Shown: positions 4,548 to 28,202, numbered from the stretch's first letter. The stretch is 64,000 nucleotides of DNA from Chloroflexota bacterium (GCA_030447245.1 JAUJPG010000004.1:16843-80842), one strand, 5' to 3'. Notes: a model not told the origin generated them from the sequence alone. Translations and numbers: made by a program.

Positions 4548-5780
4548 GTGAGTTTCCGACGTAGACTTGTTGGTCCGATCCTGGAGGGCCGGCGAAGAGT
4601 GCACCTCCGGGTGCAGACCTGCGCGGCTCTGCTAGCGCTGGTTGTCGTCGCGGAAACCGCTCTGCCCACCCTCGCGGCCGGCACCGACTACGACATTGCC
4701 GATGGGCACTACTACGAGCAGGGCACCGGCACCAAGGGCCGCGGATTCGTCGTCGTCGACGATGAGGCGGCGCCACTCTGGGGCGAGCTCCGTCGCCTTG
4801 GCGGCGTCCCTGCAATGGGTTATCCGATTTCGAGCCGATACGCATGCGACGGAGGGGTCTGTCAGGCTTTCCAGTACGCCGTGTTCAAGTGGGGGCCGAC
4901 TGCCAAGAAGGAGGTCGAGCTGCTGCCGGTTTTCGACTGGCTGCACGCCGAAGGACACGACGCCTGGCTCGACGAAGTCTGGGAGGTTCCGCCGATGGAG
5001 CCTGCCGCGGCCGACACGAAGCGGTCAACGACGAACAAGGATCGCGTCGACGACCGCGATCCGGCAGCACTGCTTGAGGAAAATCCGGCGATCAAGTCGG
5101 CATACGCCAAGCTCGGCGGGGCCGCCCCGAGTATCTACGGCCTCCCGCGAGTGTACCGCGCCTCGGAGAAGCAGGCGGTGCTTCGGACTCAGCGCACGGC
5201 GCTAGTCCATTCAGCCAGCGCGCCGGATGGCGTTCGGCGCATTCCGGCCGGCGAAGTGTTCCGGGAGGCCGGCTACGTACCGATCGAGGCACTCGACCCA
5301 GTACGCGGGCCCCGACTCAGCAAGGCGCTGCCGCCAGTGCGGATCAGCATTCCGGATTTAAAGGTCGATGCTGACGTCATTGCCCTCGACATGGGCCCGG
5401 ACGGCGTGCTGCCAACGCCGGACACTGGACGCGTCGTGGCCTGGTACAGCTATGGCGCGCGGCTGGGCGAGCCGGGCAACGCGGTGCTGGCCGGGCACGT
5501 CGATTGGGACCGTGAGCGGGGCGTGTTCTGGGCGCTGCGCGACGCGAAAGCTGGCCAGGTGATTTCCCTGCGTGACGCCAACGGCAAGACGTACGATTAC
5601 AAGGTGCGGTGGGTGGAAGACTTTCCGGTCGATTCGATCGACGGCCTCGAGGCGCTACGACCCCAGCGGAAGGAGGCGCGGCTCACGCTGGTGACCTGCA
5701 GCGGCCGGTTCGACTTCGCGACGCGCTCCTACGAGAGTCGGCGGGTGGTCCGCGCCGCCCTGATCGGCGAGCGTCCGTGA
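4548..5780 (+). CDS. class F sortase-like transpeptidase with extra N-terminal domain
   Basis: Conserved sortase His (LAGHVDW) and catalytic Cys in LTLVTCSG (TLxTC motif), followed by Arg (RRVV); N-terminal signal/TM segment. Confidence 0.7.
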   Translation: MSFRRRLVGPILEGRRRVHLRVQTCAALLALVVVAETALPTLAAGTDYDIADGHYYEQGTGTKGRGFVVVDDEAAPLWGELRRLGGVPAMGYPISSRYACDGGVCQAFQYAVFKWGPTAKKEVELLPVFDWLHAEGHDAWLDEVWEVPPMEPAAADTKRSTTNKDRVDDRDPAALLEENPAIKSAYAKLGGAAPSIYGLPRVYRASEKQAVLRTQRTALVHSASAPDGVRRIPAGEVFREAGYVPIEALDPVRGPRLSKALPPVRISIPDLKVDADVIALDMGPDGVLPTPDTGRVVAWYSYGARLGEPGNAVLAGHVDWDRERGVFWALRDAKAGQVISLRDANGKTYDYKVRWVEDFPVDSIDGLEALRPQRKEARLTLVTCSGRFDFATRSYESRRVVRAALIGERP

Positions 5781-17612: not shown

Positions 17613-18186
17613 ACGAGCGTCCTTCACGTTGAAGAGCTGCACGGCGGAAGCCGCGACTTTCACCATCGCCACCCGCCTGCGGGGCACCATTGTCCGCGGC
17701 GGGGTGGCGCTCTTACAAGGTCAACGAGCGTCGTGGAGTCCGGATCTGCACCCCAGCGGCAAGGCCGGCGAAGGGCCGAAAACCCGCCCGCGACCGACCC
17801 CGTGGTCATCGACGAAGCGAACATGCTCGAAGTCCTGAACTCCAACCAGCTCACCAGCCCTATCCAACCTGGCTCGCACCTGCTGAAGGTGGGCGACCCG
17901 GACTAGCTCTCGCGCGTTGGCACCGGTAAACTCCTGGCCGACCTGCTCCGAATATGAGCGCATCCCCGTCAAGCGCCTGGAACACAGCTTCCAGCGGAGT
18001 GATGGGTGCGGCATCGCCCAGAGTGCCCGATAGATCAGCGCCGGCGAGTTGCCGCGCGTCGGCGAAGACGTCCGCGACTGTCTCCTTGCTGTCGGCCCAC
18101 GAGCCAGCCTCGGGCTCGTCATCCTCGGGGGCCGACACCAAACCGTGACGCTCCAGCCCACGTTGATTCCTCAGATAGTCGCCTTG

Positions 18187-18231
18187 GACGGATACACGGG
18201 CACGGCCCACGCGCTGGCGGACGGCGCGCAT
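18187..18231 (-). pseudogene. short dtd-like N-terminal remnant
   Basis: MRAVRQRVGRARVSV at the start of track ORF 17860..18231 nearly matches the Dtd N-terminus [15 protein letters not shown]; similarity is lost after about 15 residues. Confidence 0.3.
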
Positions 18232-18344
18232 CGGTAGGCGGCCGGTCCGAGCACGTCCGAGGATCTCCCGTCCGCCGAGTCATGCCGCCAGGCACCGCCC
18301 ACCGCGCCCTCAGCGTCAACACGTCGACGGCGCGAACCTGGATG

Positions 18345-18413
18345 CGTTCTAGACACAACAGAGCGGCGATACTGCTCCGATGGGCCGACCAGGACGCGGT
18401 CGCGAGCCGATAG
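18345..18413. repeat. about 70-bp repeat, copy 1 (second copy at 24471..24546)
   Basis: cgttctagacacaacagagcggcg...ggccgaccaggacgcggtcgcgagccgatag versus cgttctagccacaaaagtgccgcggcg...gaccgaccaggacgtggtggcc; both encode ...LRW(A/T)DQD(A/V)VAS. Confidence 0.5.
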
Positions 18414-19468
18414 CATGGGACCGCTACGCCGCTCCCACGACCGGGCGGGTGGCGAACGGCCGTGGAGGGTTGACCGTGAAGAAGCGTGTCGCCGGTCCGC
18501 TCGAAGCCATCACCGCGCACCAAGCCGCACTCCCGCAGGGAGGAGATATGGCCTACGGCGTCGCCTTCCTCTGCGCGGTGATGGCGGTGCGGGATGCCTG
18601 GCTGCGTCACGGTGCGCGGGTGGCCGTTGAGGACCTGGTCGGGCGTGCCCTGCGTGACGGAATGCGCCGCGCGACCGACGGGTCTACCTGGCGGCGTGCG
18701 CCCCGCGAAGCTCAGCCACGGCGGCCGTGGCCCCGTCTCGATCGAGAGGATCGGGACAGGGGACAGGGCGGCCGCCCAGGATGTCGCCGTCGATGCCCCG
18801 GGCGAGAACGCCCCGTCGCGGATGCATGAAGCAGGAGCCGTTCGACGGGCCGAAGACGGCGATGCCGCCTTGCGGGCCGTCGTCAGCGAGGTTGCCGAGC
18901 CGTGTGCGCGTCAGCGCCTCGCACGCGCTTCCCTAAAAGTTGTCGTTGTCGTCATCGTTGTCGTTGTCGCCCCCGTTGTCGCCGTGGTCCTCATTGTCGC
19001 CGTGGTTGTCGTTGTCACCGCCACCACCGCCGCCATTGCCAACTCCTCGGCGCCTCGTACGCACCGATGTCGCAGATCGCCATCGCGTTGCCGTCGCCGT
19101 CGATCGGCCGGGAGACGGCGCGCTGGTGGACCGACTCGAAGATGACCGGGTCGCAGGCGTCGATCGCCACGCTGCCGGCAGCAGCGCGTGGGTCTGGGTC
19201 AGCCCGCCGTTGCTCGCGAGCGGGCCGAGCTTCGGGTCGCCACTCGACACGTCGCCGGTCGCGCTCAGACCGCAGGACGCGTCGGTCGAGAGGTTGTGGC
19301 CGCCCTACTGGTAGCCCGAGATGGCCTCGATGAAGCAGTCGGTCGGGATGCCGCGCCATGCCGTTGGCGAAGATGGTGTTGCGGGGCACCGAGGTGCCCT
19401 GGAGAGCCGCGAGGTTGCCGCCGCGCGTGTCCTCGACGTGGCGGCCAGGGTGGCGTTAGAGAGCACTA

Positions 19469-19482
19469 GTGGGTCAGTTCTC
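19469..19482. repeat. left terminal inverted repeat of the IS630-family element
   Basis: gtgggtcagttctc preceded by TA. Confidence 0.6.
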
Positions 19483-19558
19483 GCGAGGGTTGCCAAACGG
19501 GTGTGTGCCTGGCATGCTCTGGCGTCCGTTCGGTCGAGCGAGCGGACGGAGGTCAGCC

Positions 19559-20572
<1,014 letters not shown>

Positions 20573-20887
20573 TGCCCTTGTACACGCGCTAGGCGGCTCC
20601 TGGCCGAACATGGCCGAGTCCGTCCAGGCGCATCCTCGTCCGGGCGCGCCCTGGATGGCCACCACCCCGAAACTGCCCAGCAGGTCATGGACCGCTGGCC
20701 GCCACCGTCCGGGGGCTGGAACGCGGCCCCAACCCCGTTCGTCTGGGGCGGCCACCGTCGGCAGCGCCGCTGGCGGGCCCGCCGCCGGCGGCCGCTCGCG
20801 TCGAGCCGCACGGCCTCGGCGGCTCCGCGGCACTCACCCGTCGCCCACTCCCTCGTCGCCGCTCAACGTATGAACGGCTCTGCGCAT

Positions 20888-20902
20888 GAGAACTGACCCA
20901 CC
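20888..20902. repeat. right terminal inverted repeat of the IS630-family element
   Basis: gagaactgacccacc followed by TA; reverse complement matches the left TIR. Confidence 0.6.
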
Positions 20903-22049
20903 TAGCGTGCGCCATTGCCCTCGTGGAGGACGCCGTGGCCATACCCGCCCCCAATCCTGCTGCTGAAGACCGCGCGGTTGGTGCTGACCGTCACGTTGGT
21001 GAGCGTGGCGACGCCGTCGGCGACGTTGAGGATCCCGCCGCCGTTCCGGGGCCTGGTTGTTGGCGAGCGTGGCGCGATACAGGGCGAGGTTGCCGAGGTT
21101 CTCGATGCCCCCGCCGCTCCCGACGTTGGTGAGCGCCTCGTTGTCCCTGACGGTGACGTCGCTCAGCGACGCGAGGGCTCCACCCGCGGTTCGTCATCCC
21201 GCCGCCCCAGGCGCCGTCGATGACGACGCGGTTGCCTGAGGACGACGTTCGACAGGTTGACCGTTCCGTGGCTGTGGATGCCCGCCGTGGGCGTAGCCGA
21301 CGAAGCCGAAGCCGGGCCTTGCCATTCGTGACCGTCGCCTCCCTGATCTCGAGGGTCGCGCCCGTATTGACGTCGAAGACGCGGTCGCCGGGTCACGTCG
21401 CCGTTCCCGTCGATGATCGTCTGGGTCCAGCGGCCCCCTCGATGCTGGATGCTGGAGCCGGCGATGACGTCGAGGTCGCCCTTCGCGGCGTTGTTGTCGA
21501 CATCGGCCCGCCGCCGTCGGCGCCGCCGATCCCGAGCAGGTACGTCCCGGCTGGCAGGATGATGACGTCCCGGGCCCGCCAAGGCGTTGGCCTCGATGAT
21601 CGCGCCCCGCAGCGAGCAGTTGCCGGGGACATAGAGCAGGTTGTCAGTGGTGGTCGTCACGGTGAAATCGACCGCGTGGGCGGCCCGGGTCGACGTTGCC
21701 GTCCCGCCGATCGTCAGGGTAACGATGATCGCCAGCGCGGCGGATGTACCTCGCTCGCCTATCTCAGCCTCCCATCCGGTCGCTCGCGCTGCGCGAGCCT
21801 ACCTGTTCGGGATCACCTAGGTGAACATCGGCCTGATGTCTGAGATCTAGACGTGCAGGCGACGTGGTTCTCGTTCATCTCCTCTCCGTCGACGACCGCG
21901 ACCAGCCGCGTGGCCGCCAGCCGACTCCATCGGATACCCTCGTCATGCAACCCCCTTCACGAGCTGAACGACGGCGCCCGCCGCGATTCGGCGCGCACGG
22001 CTCACCAACCTGCGACCAGTCTACCGCGTCATGCCCCCCGGCCCCCATG

Positions 22050-22087
22050 GAAGTACGGGGTTTCCGGGGTTTCAGTACGGGCTTTTC
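22050..22087 (-). repeat. GTAC-containing motif, copy 1 (reverse orientation)
   Basis: aagtacggggtttccggggtttcagtacgggctttt is the reverse complement of the AAAGCCCGTACT / AAACCCCGTACT units seen at 44.8 and 48.9 kb. Confidence 0.7.
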
Positions 22088-22290
22088 GCCCTACTGGATC
22101 GTGGACTGGTGCCAGCAGCACGTCGAGGTGTACCGCTGCGGGGAGGCCCCACAGGGAGGGTCAGCCCCGTGGTAGTCACCGGGCGGGGGGGTGCCGCTCG
22201 TGGCAACGCTCGCGGGCGAGGAGGTGCTGACGACGCCGCTCCTGCCCCATTTCGCCTGCCCCTGCCGAGCCTCTGGGCGCCATCGTCCCG
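22085..22290 (+). pseudogene. Uma2-family endonuclease C-terminal remnant (copy A)
   Basis: YWIVDWCQQHVEVYR and LAGEEVLTTPLLPHFACP match the Uma2 C-terminal consensus; N-terminal two thirds absent. Confidence 0.45.
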
Positions 22291-23339
22291 ACCGCGAGCC
22301 GATCGCCCCCAGGGCTCGACGTCCGCCATGGTCGGGCCGCGGTCGTCGATGGGGAGCGCCCCGCGAGGGCCCGGGCCTCGCTCGACGGCCGCGCGCGGTC
22401 GTCCCCGCCGCCGTCAGCGGAGGCGCAGCCGCTCCACGCCCTGGGCCGGTGGCCGCGTAGAGGTACCGCCCGTCGATCCTCAGCGCCAGGTCGGAGATCA
22501 GGCTCAGGTCCTGGTGCCCCAAGTCGGTCCAGGTGGCCCCGCCGTCGAGGCTGGCCTTCACCCCGCTGCCGATCGGGGTCTCGCCTACACCGCCGCCGCG
22601 CTCGTAGCCGTTGAGGCCGACGTCCCGCTGGCAGGGTGTACGCCAGGTCACCATCTGGACGTTTGGTTCGGCCCCGTCCGCTCGGCTCTGCGAACGCCAG
22701 ATCTCGGTCCAGCTTGACCGTCGGTCGCTACAGGGACGAGCCCCCGCCCTGACCGCGACTGCGCGTCGACCGCGGTGGCTCTGCTCGGCCACGGCAGCAT
22801 CGGGACCCACGTCGCCGCGTCGTCGCGCGGCACCGAGGTCCCGACCTTGGCGGTCGTGTGATCGCTCGGGTCGACCGCCACGCCGACCGCACCCAGCGAC
22901 TGCCGGGGATCAGGCCGCGGTCGCTCAGGCTGACCGCGATCGCGCTGAAGCTCTGCTGCTCCGGCCACGGCAGCATCGGGACCCACGTCACCGCGTCGTC
23001 GCGCGACACCGAGGTCCCGACGTACAGCGTCGTGTGATCGCTCGGGTCGACCGCCACGCCAACCCCACCCCAGCGACGGCCGGGGAATCCGGGCGGGAGG
23101 GCGACCGACGCCCAGGTCACGCCGCCGTCGTCGCTGCGGGACAGCCCGCTCGCCGTCTTCGCGAAGAAGGCACCGCTGGCGGGCGTGAAGAGCTCGGAGG
23201 CGCTCTCGCCGAGCCCGGTCGGCTCCCAGTCCCACGCGGGCGCCTCCTGCGCCCCCAGGCCGCCACCCGTCCCGAGCGTCGCCAGCACTGCCACCAGCGC
23301 GACCGCCCGGCGTGCCATTCCCCAGCCGAGGCCCATCAT
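22100..23339 (-). pseudogene. BNR-repeat (beta-propeller, sialidase/Ycf48-like) secreted protein, frameshifted
   Basis: Signal peptide MMGLGWGMARRAVALVAVLATLG, BNR motifs SRSDDGGVTWAS, SVSRDDAVTWVPM, SLDGGATWTDL spread across three overlapping minus-strand frames. Confidence 0.5.
22781..23085. repeat. about 120-bp imperfect direct repeat inside the BNR pseudogene
   Basis: ctgctcggccacggcagcatcgggacccacgtcgccgcgtcgtcgcgcg... recurs about 170 bp downstream with a few substitutions. Confidence 0.6.
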
Positions 23340-23449
23340 GCCTGTCCCTCCCGGTTTCCGTGGTGCGCACCCCGTCGATCGCGCTTCGGCGCGCACGGGT
23401 CGCCGATCCATGACCACTCTACCGCGTCGGCCTCCCCCCGGTCCCCCGT

Positions 23450-23479
23450 GGAAGTACGGGGTTTCAGTACGGGCTTTTC
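23450..23479 (-). repeat. GTAC-containing motif, copy 2 (reverse orientation)
   Basis: gaagtacggggtttcagtacgggcttttcc. Confidence 0.7.
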
Positions 23480-23482
23480 CCC

Positions 23483-23813
23483 GTGGTTGCCAGCGGCGGG
23501 TACCTGCGTACCGCGCCCAAGCTGGTGGTCGGGGTGCTCTCACCGGGGCGGTGCACGAGCGGCGCGACCGAGAGGAGCAGCTCGCGCTCTGCGGGCGGCA
23601 GGGGGTCCGGGAGCACTGGATCGTGGACTGGCGCCAGCAGCGTCTCGACGTCTATCACCGTGGGCAAGCCCGTCGGGAGGGGCCCGTGGTCGTCACCGCG
23701 CCGAGGCAAGTATGCCGCACGTCGCGACGCTCACCGGCGAGGAGGTGCTGACGACGCCCCTGCTGCCCGAGTTCGCCTGCCCCCTGCCGAGCCTCTGGGC
23801 GCCGTCGTCCTGA
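23483..23813 (+). pseudogene. Uma2-family endonuclease C-terminal remnant (copy B), frameshifted
   Basis: PKLVVGVLSPG, EHWIVDWRQQRLDVYHRG and LTGEEVLTTPLLPEFACPLPSLWA lie in three different frames. Confidence 0.55.
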
Positions 23814-23936
23814 CCGCGGATCCATCGCGCGCTTACCCTTGCTCGGCGGCGGCGCAGGTCACCGCCAGCGCGGCCCTCGCGAGCCGCGTCAGGCTCGTCT
23901 CGGCCTCCGATCGCACAGCGCGCACGGTCCCGTCTG

Positions 23937-24482
23937 TCAGCGGTCCGCGATGACGTAGGTGAACGCCAGCGTGTTGTCAGAGATCTGCGACATGCAGGCG
24001 GCAATGTCGTCGTTCCTGTCCTCGTTTGGGCCGACCAGGATCAGCCCGTGCGCCTCGTCATCGGGGTTGTGGATCATCGGGGGCACCCAGTCGAGGATCT
24101 GGTTGAAGAAGCCGCTCCGGTTCTGGTCCCGCGCGTCGTCCTAGGGGATCGCGTAGGCGGGGTTACCCCTATCCCAGTCGACCGTCGGACGCCTGAGCCG
24201 GAGCCAGCAGGAAATCTGGAACTCGCCGGCGTGAGAGGCCCGCCCGCCGTTCGGTGCTTGCTCGTGGTACAGCACCTCGCGGTAGCGGAGCACCGCCTCG
24301 ACCGGCGGCAGGCTATGGCCGTGCAGGGCGCTGAAGTCGAACTTGAAGGCCAGCTGCCGGTACTCGTGCCAGGTGCAGCCGCTGAAGAAGCCGACCGTCG
24401 ACGGCCTCGCTTGCTGCAACGTCACCCAGCATGACCCGGCGACCGGAGGTCCCCCCGTCATGCTGGGAATCGTTCTAGCCAC
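23937..24482 (-). pseudogene. secreted Cys-containing family-A protein, 5'-truncated copy with internal stop
   Basis: LAFKFDFSALHG...CWLRLRRPTVDW then, after a TAG and a frame change, FNQILDWVPPMIHNPDDEAHGLILVGPNEDRNDDIAACMSQISDNTLAFTYVIADR; closely matches the C-terminal half of 44934..45977. Confidence 0.6.
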
Positions 24483-24546
24483 AAAAGTGCCGCGGCGCTG
24501 ATGCGCTGGACCGACCAGGACGTGGTGGCCTCACCAGGTACAATGT
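24471..24546. repeat. about 70-bp repeat, copy 2 (see 18345..18413)
   Basis: Shared cgttctag...ccgaccaggacg.ggt.gc core. Confidence 0.5.
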
Positions 24547-24642
24547 AGGGGGTCGGGTGCGCGCCTGATCAGCGCCCGTTCAAGCCCGGCGACCACAGAC
24601 GCCGGGGCGCGTCCCTCTTCTGCCTCGCTGTGGCGATGTACG

Positions 24643-25170
24643 ATGCCACTCTCGCGAAATGAGGCCCAACTGCTGGCGAGGGCCGCAAAGGCCGCGGCTG
24701 ATGCGAAACGGCTGGTCGATCCAGCCCTTTCCGTCGCACTCGCCGCTCTCAAGCGGGACAAGGATCTCGGCGGGCAAGCAGCTAGGGTCAGGAACAGGAA
24801 GCGGAACGAGGATGCCTTGGGTGACGTGGGTGTCCTCGCCGAAGCGTTGGCGGAGGGGGGTCCCGTATCGAGCGCCGCCCGGTCCGCTGAGGCTCCGTCG
24901 CCTCCGGAAGCAACTGCCGACGACGGCCCCCGCCGCGATCGCAAGCCGCGCACTGTCGGTTCAGAAGCCAAGAAGCGGGTCCGCCAGCGAGACTTCAGCA
25001 GCCAACTCTTCAGACGCAGGCCGATCGAAGTGATGGACTCGATCCTCGACCTGGGCAAACGCTTGACAAAGTGCGGGGTAGCCGCGGCGATGGGCATACA
25101 CAGAGGGACCCTTGGCTTGTACCTGAGCGACGAGCAGATCGACTGGGATCAGGCGAAGCTCGACGCGTAG
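24643..25170 (+). CDS. hypothetical Ala-rich protein with possible C-terminal helix-turn-helix
   Basis: Open frame with lower GC3 than neighbours; C-terminal ILDLGKRLTKCGVAAAMGIHRGTLGLYL is HTH-like; no family recognised. Confidence 0.35.
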   Translation: MPLSRNEAQLLARAAKAAADAKRLVDPALSVALAALKRDKDLGGQAARVRNRKRNEDALGDVGVLAEALAEGGPVSSAARSAEAPSPPEATADDGPRRDRKPRTVGSEAKKRVRQRDFSSQLFRRRPIEVMDSILDLGKRLTKCGVAAAMGIHRGTLGLYLSDEQIDWDQAKLDA

Positions 25171-25276
25171 GAGAGAAGGGCAAGGCGCCGGGCCCTCGAG
25201 CGGCAGAGACAATCTGAGCGGCGATCCTAACAATCGTCGATCATCGATGGAATCCAGCAAGTTCCGACGTTCTTGA

Positions 25277-25313
25277 GGGGCATCCTGGTCTTGAAGGGAG
25301 ACCAGGATGCCCC
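25277..25313 (+). promoter_or_regulatory. perfect 14-bp inverted repeat with 9-nt loop that encloses the RBS and start codon of the RHH gene
   Basis: ggggcatcctggtc-ttgaaggga-gaccaggatgcccc; GGGAG lies in the loop and ATG 25307 in the 3' arm. Confidence 0.6.
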
Positions 25314-25522
25314 GATTCCTTCTTGAGGTCTCGGACCCCGCCTTTGAACGCCTGACCAAAGAGGCCGGGCGGTATCGGCGGTCGCTCAAGGACCAAGCGG
25401 CGTGGCTCCTCGGGGGCGTGCTGCTGGCCGCCGACGCGCCAGCGCGGGAGCTCGAGAAGATTGGCGCGTCGGCGGGTGTGAGTGCAGCTGACCAGCTAGG
25501 GGCTGGTTATGCCGCGGGGTGA
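25307..25522 (+). CDS. small ribbon-helix-helix-like DNA-binding protein (candidate antitoxin)
   Basis: 71 aa; PRFLLEVSDPAFERLTKEAGRYRRSLKDQAAWLL is consistent with a beta-strand plus two helices as in Arc/CopG/ParD proteins. Confidence 0.45.
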   Translation: MPRFLLEVSDPAFERLTKEAGRYRRSLKDQAAWLLGGVLLAADAPARELEKIGASAGVSAADQLGAGYAAG

Positions 25523-25681
25523 GCATCCACTGCCGCTCACGGTGCGGCGTGAGCTCCTCACGGAACTTTACCGTGTGCTTCTATGCCCCCCGGTCGAGGA
25601 GCAGGATGCGGTAAAGCCGCGTCACCGGGTGGACGACGCGGACCGCACAATTGTGATCCTGGACAGCGGGGCGAGCGAGTA
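25508..25681 (+). CDS. short overlapping ORF downstream of the RHH gene (possible toxin remnant)
   Basis: ATG at about 25508 overlaps the RHH stop; 57 codons, MPRGEHPLPLTVRRELLTELYRVLL...; not in the ORF track because under 60 aa. Confidence 0.2.
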
Positions 25682-26179
25682 GCCGTGTCGAACATCATCG
25701 CTATCCGACGTCCGCTCCACTCCCAGCCCGAAGTCGGTCAGGTCGTGCAGTTTCTCCGCTGTCGGTGCGAACGGCACGTCGTCGTGCTGGAGGGGGCGAG
25801 CGGCTCGATTTGACGACGTGGCGCCACAAGGTCTGGCGAGCGGGCGATCCCTCCCGCGACCGGTACCTGATCTAGATGGGCCCGCCACCCGCATCAGATG
25901 ACGTTGTGGCTAGAACCTCGACGGCGTGGACTCACAGCGCTGGATGTGCACCCATCAGATGCCTCCTCCACGGGGCAAGGGCGTCGGGGGTCTCGGCCGG
26001 GGTTGGCCAGCGCGCTCGCGCCCGCGGCCCACGGGCAAGCCGGGTCAGAGCCTCGGTTCTGTCCTGCCTTCAACCGCTCCAACCGCTGCTCGGCGGGCAG
26101 CGTGGTCCTGCTGCTCCCGCCACCGGCAGGCTATCGTCCCAGCGTCCGCAACGATCTCCGGCGGACGAAAGGAGCCGAC

Positions 26180-26557
26180 ATGGAATCGAAATCCGCCGCG
26201 CTCAACACGCCGCCAGGACAAGACGTCCCGGCGCGCTTTCCGCTGGCTGAGGCACGCACGGCGCCGCCTCAGGCTGGCCGCCGGTCGGCGCTGCTGCTGG
26301 AGCACGGGAGCCTGGAGCTACGCTACTATGCGCCGCGCGGCACCGACCCGCAGACACCGCACACCCGTGACGAGGTCTACGTCGTCGCCTCTGGCCGAGG
26401 CTGGTTCGTGCGCGCGGAAGAGCGCGTTGCGTTCGAGTGCGGCGACGCGCTGTTCGTGGCGGCCGGCGTGGAGCACCGGTTCGAAGACTTCAGCGACGAC
26501 TTCGCAACCTGGGTCATGTTCTACGGTCCAGAAGGTGGCGAGCGGCCGGCGACGTGA
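26180..26557 (+). CDS. cupin-domain protein
   Basis: HTRDEVYVVASGRGWF ... GDALFVAAGVEHRFEDF has the two-motif cupin pattern; start at MESKS inside track ORF 25898..26557. Confidence 0.65.
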   Translation: MESKSAALNTPPGQDVPARFPLAEARTAPPQAGRRSALLLEHGSLELRYYAPRGTDPQTPHTRDEVYVVASGRGWFVRAEERVAFECGDALFVAAGVEHRFEDFSDDFATWVMFYGPEGGERPAT

Positions 26558-26614
26558 CCAGTTAGCGAGGGCGTCCAGCATGGAGTCGCCGATCAAGCAG
26601 GAGTAGTGCTCGGC

Positions 26615-27064
26615 TTAGTCGGCCTTGGCCCCAGCGGCGCTTTCGGTTCTGGCCGGCGCGGGAGTTCCGCTGCCGGCATTGGACCCACCCTCGGATCTGG
26701 ACCCGCCCCCAGATTTGGACCCATTCTCCGACTTGGACCCGCCTTCGGGCTTGGCACCCGCTTCCGACTTGGCGCCCGGTTCCGACTTGGCGCTGGCGTC
26801 GGACTTGACGCCTGACTCTTTGCTCGCGGGAGCTTCCGATGCAGCGCCGTCCGCCTTGTCCGACTCCGGCTCTTTGGCCGCACTGGTGCCACGATAGTCC
26901 GTGTTGTAGAAGCCGCTGCCCTTGAACACGATGCCGGCCGGGTGGATCAATCTGCGGAGCGCACCGCCGCACGACTCACAGGTAGTGAGTGGGTCATCGC
27001 TGAAGCTCTGCCGCTTCTCGGCGACGTTGCTGCACGATTGACACTCATATGTATAGATCGGCAC
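26615..27064 (-). CDS. FmdB-family zinc-ribbon protein with Ser/Lys/Glu/Gly-rich low-complexity tail
   Basis: PIYTYECQSC...CESCGG CxxC-x-CxxC zinc ribbon starting at a GTG (about 27064); tail SKSEAGAKPEGGSKSENGSKSGGGSRSEGG. Confidence 0.7.
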   Translation of the reverse strand: MPIYTYECQSCSNVAEKRQSFSDDPLTTCESCGGALRRLIHPAGIVFKGSGFYNTDYRGTSAAKEPESDKADGAASEAPASKESGVKSDASAKSEPGAKSEAGAKPEGGSKSENGSKSGGGSRSEGGSNAGSGTPAPARTESAAGAKAD

Positions 27065-27275
27065 GCCCGGCCCTCCGCCCCACGACCACACAAAAGCGAC
27101 CAGCTCGCGAGCTGATCGCTCGTAGATTCTAAATTGAAGTATACCAGAAGTGGCGGATGAAGCCCGGATGCGCCACGGCCCGCGGGCCAGCGGCGAGCGT
27201 GTCGGCCGGGGTGGCAACCAAGGTACCATCGGCCCGAGCACTCGGTTCGGGCCGGTCGATCGAGAGAGGTGCAGC

Positions 27276-28202
27276 ATGCGCGTGGCGGTCTTTGGGGCCG
27301 GCGGGACCGGCGGCTACTTCGGCGGGCTGTTGGCCAAAGCAGGCGAGGACGTCAGTTTCATCGCGCGCGGCGAGCACTTGAGGGCGATCCTGGCCGAGGG
27401 ACTGACCGTTCGCTCGAAGATGGTGGGCGATTTCACGGTCCGAGCCAACGCGACAGACAACCCGGCCGAGATCGGGCCAGTCGACCTGGTTCTGTTCTGC
27501 GTGAAGACGTACGACAACGACGCTGCCGAGCGCCTCCGCCCGCTGGTCGGCCCGGAGACGATGGTGCTATCAGTTCAGAACGGGATCGACCACGCCGAGC
27601 GGCTGGCACGCGTCCTCGGTGAGGGGCACGTCGTCGGCTGCACGGTCGGCGTCTCGGCCATCGTGGCGGCGCCCGGCGTGATCGAGCACCGAGCGATTCG
27701 CGGGCTCATCCGATTCGGCGAGCTACCCCGGGGGACGAGCCAGCGGACGGCCCAGCTCAAGGAGCTTTTCGAGCGGGCGGAGATCGTCGCCGACGAGCGT
27801 CCGGACATTCAGGTCGCGATCTGGGAGAAGTTTGTCATGATCTGCGCGGTGAGCGGCGTGACGGCGCTTACCCGACTGCCGCTCGGGCCGATCCTGGCCT
27901 GCGCTGAGACGGCCGAGCTATTCCGCGGGACGATGGAGGAGGTCGAGGCGGTCGGCCACGCCTCCGGCGTCGCGCTGGCCGCGGGCACCGCCCAGCGGAC
28001 GTTCGACGGGATGTCCCGCTCAGACCCCAGGACACGCGGCTCAATGGCCCACGATCTCGAGACCGGGCGTCGGCTGGAGGTAGAAACCCTGAACGGGACC
28101 GTCGTTCGTCTGGGCAGCGAGCGTGGCATACCGACCCCCTGCAACTTTGCGATCTACGCCGCCCTGAAGCCGTACGCCGATGGCCCTCCGGAGCTACCAT
28201 GA
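27276..28202 (+). CDS. panE: 2-dehydropantoate 2-reductase
   Basis: MRVAVFGAGGTGGYFGG Rossmann motif and ApbA/PanE-like C-terminal domain; start inside track ORF 27150..28202. Confidence 0.75.
   Translation: MRVAVFGAGGTGGYFGGLLAKAGEDVSFIARGEHLRAILAEGLTVRSKMVGDFTVRANATDNPAEIGPVDLVLFCVKTYDNDAAERLRPLVGPETMVLSVQNGIDHAERLARVLGEGHVVGCTVGVSAIVAAPGVIEHRAIRGLIRFGELPRGTSQRTAQLKELFERAEIVADERPDIQVAIWEKFVMICAVSGVTALTRLPLGPILACAETAELFRGTMEEVEAVGHASGVALAAGTAQRTFDGMSRSDPRTRGSMAHDLETGRRLEVETLNGTVVRLGSERGIPTPCNFAIYAALKPYADGPPELP

Follow-up and report, generated by a model that had tools for sequence, protein, structure and literature searches.

The 64,000-nt stretch of DNA from a Chloroflexota bacterium analyzed here (GCA_030447245.1 JAUJPG010000004.1:16843-80842; the whole stretch is called the window) contains a perfect palindrome that encloses the ribosome-binding site and start codon of a small gene, which encodes a putative ribbon-helix-helix (RHH) protein of 71 residues and is followed by an overlapping open reading frame (ORF) of 57 codons. 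The locus raises the question of whether the palindrome works as DNA, as the operator of an RHH autorepressor, or as RNA, as a structure that would occlude translation initiation, and whether the two genes form an antitoxin-toxin pair; a first-pass annotation had proposed all three. The answer we favor, with moderate confidence, is that the palindrome represents, in the window, a conserved stem-loop that regulates in cis and mainly at the level of RNA.

A hairpin over a start codon

On the plus strand, positions 25277-25313 read GGGGCATCCTGGTCTTGAAGGGAGACCAGGATGCCCC. A repeat finder places the two arms at 25277-25291 and 25299-25313, each 15 nt long, 100% complementary and separated by 7 nt, and RNA folding adds a U-G pair, yielding a stem of 16 base pairs (bp) with a 5-nt loop, GAAGG. 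The 3' arm holds the ATG (25307-25309), and the stem is closed by codon 2 and the first base of codon 3. Both the perfect hairpin over the ribosome-binding site and start codon and the ATG in the 3' arm were thus correctly described in the first-pass annotation, which had also placed GGGAG, the Shine-Dalgarno (SD) sequence, in the loop; this last point is half right, as the SD (25296-25300) spans the loop/3'-arm boundary, with GG unpaired in the loop and GAG paired in the 3' arm. The same annotation had suggested a folding-energy calculation, and the hairpin RNA folds at -34.5 kcal/mol (z = -6.8), with none of 200 shuffled sequences as stable. Folded in its wider context, it reaches -51.5 kcal/mol (z = -3.4).

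The palindrome is non-random, well beyond chance. The 64-kb window has four perfect inverted repeats in all (arms of at least 12 nt, loops of 3-25 nt), and the two longest are both at the RHH locus: the 15-nt repeat described above and a 14-nt repeat at 25428-25475, which has no conserved counterpart at this place in the homologous loci. In first-order Markov simulations, repeats of 12 nt or more averaged 0.2 per window, and none reached 14 nt. The arm sequence has no other site in the window with fewer than two mismatches; near-copies of the 3' arm at 24806 and 25599 were dismissed and attributed to the common codons GAG-GAT-GCC. Searched as a DNA pattern in a metagenome scan, the palindrome found only four unrelated sites, one of them an assembly fold-back. 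The contig FTEN01000059.1 (L013, ~4700-5140), picked up because it contains the arm sequence, has a long perfect palindrome centered near 4918 that is a fold-back artefact of assembly. A short motif, TCTTGA[AG]GG, occurs three times around the hairpin: at 25271-25280, before it; at 25289-25298, at the junction of 5' arm and loop; and at 25322-25330, in codons 5-8. The last two copies are accounted for by the SD and by the L-E-V codons.

The hairpin is not confined to the window. The locus set consists of the window and seven related loci from short metagenomic contigs (L016, L017, L018, L019, L021, L022 and L023). Seven of the eight distinct loci have a hairpin around the SD and ATG (-24 to -37 kcal/mol, z-scores between -3.8 and -9.9), and its register is constant: the SD is placed where loop and 3' arm meet, and the ATG is 4 nt away from the base of the stem. 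The RHH proteins of the loci sharing it are just 38-48% identical overall. Covariation was tested on a 7-sequence alignment with an 18-pair structure. In total, 90.2% of the pair cells are paired, compared with 79% in column shuffles (0/500 reach the observed value), and sliding the partner by 1-3 columns, as a control, leaves 35-52% of cells paired. Compensatory, double-sided changes affect seven pairs and 12 cells. At codon 2, for instance, CCC (Pro), CGG or CGC (Arg) and CAC (His) are matched in the non-coding 5' arm by GGGG, GCCG or GGCG, and GGTG, respectively. The geometry is looser than the pairing: the distance from the CAT of the 5' arm to the ATG ranges from 26 to 31 nt, loops measure 4-10 nt, and three loci carry internal mid-stem mismatches (1x1 or 2x2). 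The inner stem, TGGTC/GACCA, is kept in five of seven loci.

A covariance model of the hairpin scores the window copy at 58 bits on the plus strand and recognizes no further one in the window; the second-ranked site has 12 bits (E = 6.7). L022 is not found by the model, and its SD pairs in a weaker, different hairpin. No Rfam family matched at E up to 1 in window positions 23000-28000 or in the seven related loci. The SD and AUG are thus predicted to be base-paired in a stable structure supported by covariation, as in a leader hairpin of the IS200 tnpA type. The proposal that the hairpin, as RNA, would occlude translation initiation gains support from the compensatory changes, which extend over seven of the eight homologous loci. 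Judged by these alignments, the hairpin is a selected feature.

Action as RNA weighed against other roles

We infer that the stem-loop is mainly a brake on transcripts that enter from upstream. In transcripts containing the 5' arm, most of the SD, the AUG and codon 2 would be locked in a helix of -24 to -37 kcal/mol, so that the 30S subunit could not bind. The U-rich run that follows the helix directly would act as part of an intrinsic terminator or attenuator for transcripts from the preceding gene, which encodes a helix-turn-helix (HTH)-like protein. The locus would in this way be insulated from read-through of the HTH gene, and expression of the RHH gene, and of the ORFs whose translation is coupled to it, would be very low or conditional. 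Release could come from partial read-through, from a start site inside the structure, as in IS10 and IS50, or from a trans-acting factor. Fold-back inhibition of read-through transcripts is known in IS10 and IS50.

Two features of the geometry speak for RNA. The spacing of the arms varies between 26 and 31 nt, which an RNA loop tolerates and a fixed protein-DNA geometry does not. In addition, the structure is locked to the SD and ATG even though 25-100 nt of spacer are available upstream; as a consequence of this locking, codon 2 must co-evolve with the 5' arm, a cost that is sensible if burying the initiation region is the purpose.

The third feature is the U-rich tract over codons 3-6 of the RHH gene. 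In all eight loci, 5-8 of the first 12 nt past the stem are T. T takes 47% of the third positions in these codons, compared with 15% in the remainder of the genes (p = 4e-5) and 13% for the same amino acids across all module genes (p = 3.7e-6). The bias is T-specific, A not being enriched. An intrinsic terminator requires such a synonymous preference for T immediately downstream of a GC-rich stem, and an operator has no use for it, which favors RNA.

How far termination goes is less even across the loci. A fourth point for RNA is that a consensus terminator scan flagged the plus-strand hairpin in the window and in L023 (GC...CACCGC-UUUUUUAUU). In the window, 106 nt separate the hairpin from the preceding stop codon of the 175-aa HTH gene on the same strand; in L018, L019, L021 and L023, the distance to the counterpart's stop is 24-47 nt. 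Termination is therefore plausible, though not uniform across loci. These facts would also fit a plain intrinsic terminator of the HTH gene that overlaps the start of the next gene out of mere compactness and plays no part in translation: it looks like a terminator in the window and L023, has a U-rich tail in every locus and stands 24-106 nt past the upstream stop. We consider this improbable. The invariant register forces codon 2 and the 5' arm to co-evolve despite 25-100 nt of free spacer, the RHH gene could not be transcribed past a strong terminator in its first codons unless this were leaky or bypassed, and any read-through transcript would be translationally blocked regardless.

Several observations weigh against an action as RNA. 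The terminator scan, a strict one, did not flag L016, L018, L019 or L021, which it misses because of bulges, larger loops or poorer tails. The U-rich run also codes for a conserved hydrophobic beta-strand, so that its U-richness is partly forced by the protein. A transcription start within the hairpin would mean that the native mRNA never adopts the structure. A DNA palindrome would be preserved by covariation just as well, and the non-Watson-Crick cells (nine G-U, five A-C) show no significant preference for the sense RNA strand. The inner TGGTC/GACCA is more conserved than pairing demands, making a protein site possible. Finally, the sample is small, consisting of 7-8 loci that are all short metagenomic contigs.

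Some of these points are what an operator would predict. The first-pass annotation had called the palindrome an ideal operator for a dimeric RHH autorepressor, and small RHH repressors, such as Arc, Mnt and CopG, often autoregulate via palindromes or pseudopalindromes. In such a scheme, a dimer of RHH dimers would bind the palindrome to repress the operon that encodes it, and the site would overlap the SD and ATG incidentally or so as to add a roadblock. The modeled RHH-like fold of the gene product is consistent with it, a covarying palindrome also keeps the symmetry of the DNA, the inner TGGTC/GACCA is conserved in 5/7 loci, and the ratio of G-U to A-C mismatches does not separate DNA from RNA. 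The geometry argues otherwise: a 5-bp variation in arm spacing is about half a helical turn and would rotate the half-sites of a dimer of dimers relative to each other, and three loci have 1x1 or 2x2 mismatches in mid-stem. RHH half-sites known to us are far shorter than a continuous perfect arm of 15-16 bp. The element also sits on the SD and ATG rather than on a recognizable promoter, and the T-specific synonymous bias downstream has no operator role. No sigma-70-type promoter was recognized at the locus; a -10-like CAnnnT in the 5' arm was given little weight, because no -35 partner accompanies it consistently and because pairing with the ATG dictates its sequence.

There is, moreover, another candidate site. 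Directly 5' of the hairpin, L016 (61-91), L021 (1348-1387) and L023 (103-139) have three to four direct repeats with an exact 10-bp spacing, detected by a repeat tool, whose units differ between loci (A[AC][GT]TTCCCGCA in L016, AACTTCGGCA (TTCGGCA) in L021 and CCCGACA-type in L023). The corresponding repeats of the window are degenerate and went undetected by the same tool. The phased repeats are a candidate protein-binding site, either an operator or an iteron, and are as likely as the palindrome to be the operator of the RHH protein. Taken together, an operator function of the palindrome is possible, as the first-pass annotation had it, yet it is less likely than action as RNA, given the variable spacing, the lock on SD and ATG, the U bias and the alternative repeats.

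A DNA-level role of another kind would be that of a mobile-element hairpin, either the inverted repeat of an origin of transfer (oriT) with the RHH protein as a relaxosome accessory, or a single-strand initiation (ssi) site for a primase. RHH accessory proteins do adjoin oriT inverted repeats, and plasmid primases recognize ssi hairpins; two relatives, L016 and L022, have a primase-type gene downstream, and direct repeats adjoin the hairpin. We give this idea very little credence: none of the loci shows a relaxase, remnants of a primase are missing from the window, and a DNA role leaves the SD/ATG register and the U bias unexplained.

The reading as an RNA brake has its closest parallel in the left end of IS200, where a terminator acts against impinging transcription and a stem-loop in the 5' untranslated region sequesters the SD of tnpA (PMC4513863). 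In both cases, a stable cis hairpin that pairs the SD shields a mobile-element gene from outside transcription and keeps translation silent. In contrast to IS200, a single hairpin appears to do both jobs here and also buries the AUG and codon 2, the U-tract is in codons 3-6, the gene encodes an RHH regulator rather than a transposase, and no antisense RNA is known. The expression platforms of riboswitches and attenuators likewise combine a GC-rich hairpin, U residues and a downstream SD in the 3' arm; unlike them, the present locus has no aptamer, leader peptide or conserved anti-terminator pairing that could be found upstream, and no Rfam match. A more ambitious version, to which we attach a low probability, is that the stem-loop serves mobile elements of soil bacteria, of a class not yet described, as a compact bifunctional switch: a terminator with SD and start codon in its 3' arm and the U-tract in codons 3-6, opened conditionally, for example when the HTH or RHH protein acts at the 10-bp repeats or at the RNA. 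If true, this switch would couple antitermination to translational unlocking of an operon of RHH gene, small ORF and primase.

The small proteins and the toxin-antitoxin question

The coordinates of the hairpin and of the genes and repeats around it are collected in Table 1.

Table 1. Features of the hairpin locus, in window coordinates
Feature	Position	Strand	Remarks
175-aa gene	24643..25170	+	C-terminal HTH-like motif (...VAAAMGIHRGTLGLYLSDEQIDWDQAKLDA); first gene of the module; no family hit, self hit only
Weak 10-bp-phased repeats	25250..25279	+	GAATCCAGCA / AGTTCCGACG / TTCTTGAGGG; directly 5' of the hairpin; read from the sequence, degenerate
Conserved stem-loop	5' arm 25277-25292, loop GAAGG 25293-25297, 3' arm 25298-25313	+	Repeat finder, RNA folding
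71-aa protein ORF	25307..25522	+	Residues 1-42 (25307-25432) RHH-like domain; residues ~43-71 variable tail, probably disordered
U-rich tract	25314..25325	+	GAUUCCUUCUUG; directly 3' of the stem; codons 3-6 of the RHH gene; T-ending codons rare at this GC content
Second perfect inverted repeat	25428..25475	+	14-nt arms CCGCCGACGCGCCA / TGGCGCGTCGGCGG, 20-nt loop; in the tail-coding part of the RHH gene
57-aa ORF	25509..25682	+	Overlaps the RHH stop by 14 nt; third gene of the module; motif P..[VL].R..l..L.r.LL.PP

The 71-aa protein belongs to a very small family. It has no hit in Pfam, NCBIfam, PHROGs or PADLOC; in a word-indexed search of 5.8 billion proteins, the 71-, 57- and 175-aa ORFs match only themselves, and exact look-ups of the 71-aa and 57-aa proteins returned no contig. 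Nothing was found either when viral contigs were scanned with the 71- and 175-aa proteins and the family alignment, or when a metagenome was scanned with the 71-aa protein. An exhaustive HMMER scan of 1.84 billion representatives identified seven small relatives of 60-69 residues (E from 8e-7 to 4e-4), 45-60% identical over residues 1-42/54; three long repetitive proteins in the same scan were set aside, having matched via many short stretches. All homologues start at the same methionine (M-[PRH]-R-[FL]) and are conserved over the first ~45 residues, with the motif M.RF.[IV]EVS..AF..L...A...RR.[LV]K[DE]QAAWLLE, and have unrelated C-terminal tails. They are metagenomic singletons, unnamed or labeled 'hypothetical protein', which brings the family to eight singletons in ~15 billion proteins. 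The codon-position GC in the proposed frames follows the coding pattern (high, low, high), with a third-position GC content (GC3) of 0.74-0.76 compared with 0.79-0.92 in surrounding genes; the source DNA is about 68% GC. By its homologues and their common start, the 71-aa ORF is a real gene.

Structure prediction agrees with the first-pass view of a small RHH gene. Modeled by AlphaFold2 with the 8-sequence alignment, the protein is extended over residues 1-9 and has helices at 10-22 and 27-41, which amounts to an N-terminal beta-strand and two helices within ~45 residues, and the tail has a predicted confidence (pLDDT) of <50; the single-sequence model, one long helix, is uninformative. The top Foldseek matches in the PDB are all RHH proteins (AmrZ, Arc, CopG, the MatP RHH domain, MazE6 and AtaR), at a root-mean-square deviation of ~1.6 A over 38-44 residues and with probabilities of 0.85-0.97 (AmrZ 0.97); the E-values are weak (0.4-2) because the domain has only 40 residues. 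Four of the seven homologues match Pfam RHH_5 below its cut-off of 26 bits (residues 1-39 against profile positions 1-39 of 43, E = 0.007-0.02, 15-17 bits), and a profile search of PDB sequences gave nothing significant. With good structural support and sub-threshold sequence evidence, an RHH fold is the best reading of the model, and the protein is probably a CopG/Arc-like DNA-binding repressor. Residues 10-34 of the homologues P0005, P0007, P0008 and P0011 also show sub-threshold matches to the ANTAR RNA-binding domain (E = 0.007-0.04); these sit alongside the RHH_5 matches, near a terminator-like hairpin, and were taken as probable noise from helical composition.

In its predicted beta-alpha-alpha layout of ~45 residues, the protein resembles CopG (RepA) of pMV158, Arc, Mnt, omega and AmrZ. 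The likeness to CopG would extend to gene order in two relatives, L016 and L022, where the RHH gene precedes a replication gene as copG precedes repB; this arrangement, typical of CopG-type copy control, is found only there and not in the window. Unlike CopG, the protein reaches no Pfam RHH family at threshold, and the gene that follows is a primase rather than an HUH Rep and is missing from the window. To our knowledge, no hairpin of 16 bp has been described over the start codon of copG.

The overlap of the 57-codon ORF with the RHH stop, pointed out in the first-pass annotation, is real, and a small ORF overlaps this stop by 4-20 nt in all six loci with enough sequence. That annotation had also allowed for the downstream ORF lacking conservation; its position is in fact kept in 6/6 loci, and its sequence is kept weakly. 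The downstream ORFs range from 57 to 157 aa and have only an N-terminal motif of ~25 residues in common; the window ORF and that of L017 are 43% identical over 28 aa (BLASTP, pairwise E = 1e-6). Neither the 57-aa ORF nor its relatives have hits in Pfam, NCBIfam, PHROGs or PADLOC, and none matches a toxin or defense family. Just upstream, at 25490-25508, there is an 8-bp hairpin (GACCAGCU-AGG-GGCUGGUU) whose final position is one base ahead of the 57-aa ORF's start codon. An SD-like stretch rich in G lies in and beside its loop, and the start of this gene may also be structured.

These data bear on the antitoxin-toxin arrangement suggested in the first-pass annotation, by which a 71-aa RHH antitoxin and a new 57-aa toxin would form a type II toxin-antitoxin (TA) pair autoregulated at the palindrome. 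The outward resemblance is considerable. Two small genes overlap by 14 nt, the putative DNA-binding protein comes first and is predicted to have an RHH N-terminal domain with a disordered C-terminal tail, as in many antitoxins, and the position of the second ORF is conserved; operons with RHH antitoxins (ParD, RelB, CcdA, FitA, AtaR) have the same small RHH protein with a disordered tail, an overlapping ORF and a palindrome near the start. Here, however, there are three or four genes, the palindrome covers the translation start rather than the promoter, and the second protein is without a toxin-family match. Its relatives vary nearly three-fold in length and share only a short N-terminal helix motif, the HTH gene always comes first, and in L016 and L022 the operon runs on into a primase, so that this is no self-contained two-gene cassette. 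The extreme rarity of the family is also unlike TA families. On these grounds (no toxin family, variable length, an HTH gene upstream, a primase downstream, rarity), the TA arrangement is not supported, and we regard it as very improbable.

The module and its surroundings

The gene order around the hairpin is shared: an HTH gene, the hairpin with the RHH gene, an overlapping small ORF and, in some relatives, a primase. The upstream HTH gene is aligned in six loci, on the same strand, and ends 24-106 nt before the hairpin; its C-terminal motif is HTH-like (..VA..MG.hR.TL..YL....I.W..). A 261-aa protein of L021 matches window positions 25009-25164 (tblastn, 46% identity over 52 aa, E = 3e-6). 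The 175-aa ORF had no hit in Pfam, NCBIfam, PHROGs or PADLOC, and its exact look-up returned only a 1.4-kb contig identical to the window. At the other end of the module, the downstream gene of L016 matches a PHROG primase (E = 7e-18), and that of L022 has a sub-threshold match to a CHC2 primase-type zinc finger (E = 8e-4), all three L022 genes overlapping by 4 nt. No primase was found in L021 or in the window, where the next gene encodes a cupin and no primase or Rep remnant exists anywhere. The module is a regulatory/replication module rather than a two-gene cassette, and it looks like the control/replication region of a mobile element.

The window copy lies in a stretch of ~10 kb (17.7-27.1 kb; 17700-27150) without ORFs of the codon-position GC pattern typical of the window, in which long ORFs have no Pfam hits apart from one Uma2 fragment. 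Segments at 21982-22306 and 23380-23828 form a duplication of ~450 bp with Uma2-like endonuclease fragments, 75-96% identical in blocks and offset by ~1.4-1.5 kb. Because its surroundings contain these duplicated fragments, the window copy of the module, in atypical and partly degraded DNA, may be a remnant. Other features of the stretch include a possible frameshifted IS630-type transposase at 19.4-20.9 kb, suggested by eye and not confirmed by Pfam, and degenerate GTTGTC-type tandem repeats of period 6/18 at 18925-19022. A 64-nt direct repeat of 77% identity occurs at 18340-18403 and 24466-24529, 6.1 kb apart, the second copy being in the divergent intergenic region just 5' of the 175-aa HTH gene. 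Diverging from that gene on the minus strand, at 23937-24482, are two ORFs of 49 and 113 aa in the same frame, split by a stop codon, with a GC3 of 0.87-0.94 and no family hits, which may be one interrupted gene. Minus-strand ORFs at 24961-25389 and 25241-25396 were rejected, as the plus-strand genes are the conserved ones, and a Phd/YefM match at E = 0.18 was dismissed as noise. A genome-collection scan using the neighboring ketopantoate-reductase-like gene gave a best match of 60% identity and no close relatives in that collection.

The component mechanisms are all of known kinds, which makes the value of the finding moderate; what is new is the tiny RHH family with its covarying leader/terminator-like hairpin. 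For annotation, the locus is a reminder that an RHH gene, an overlapping small ORF and a palindrome do not make a TA system by default. It also offers a clear example, open to testing, of coding sequence that RNA structure would shape, at codon 2 and at synonymous positions in codons 3-6. The small RHH-like family is annotated in no database and its covarying cis-regulatory hairpin is missing from Rfam, and together they point to a conserved module of HTH gene, RHH gene, small ORF and sometimes primase, apparently of as yet undescribed mobile elements.

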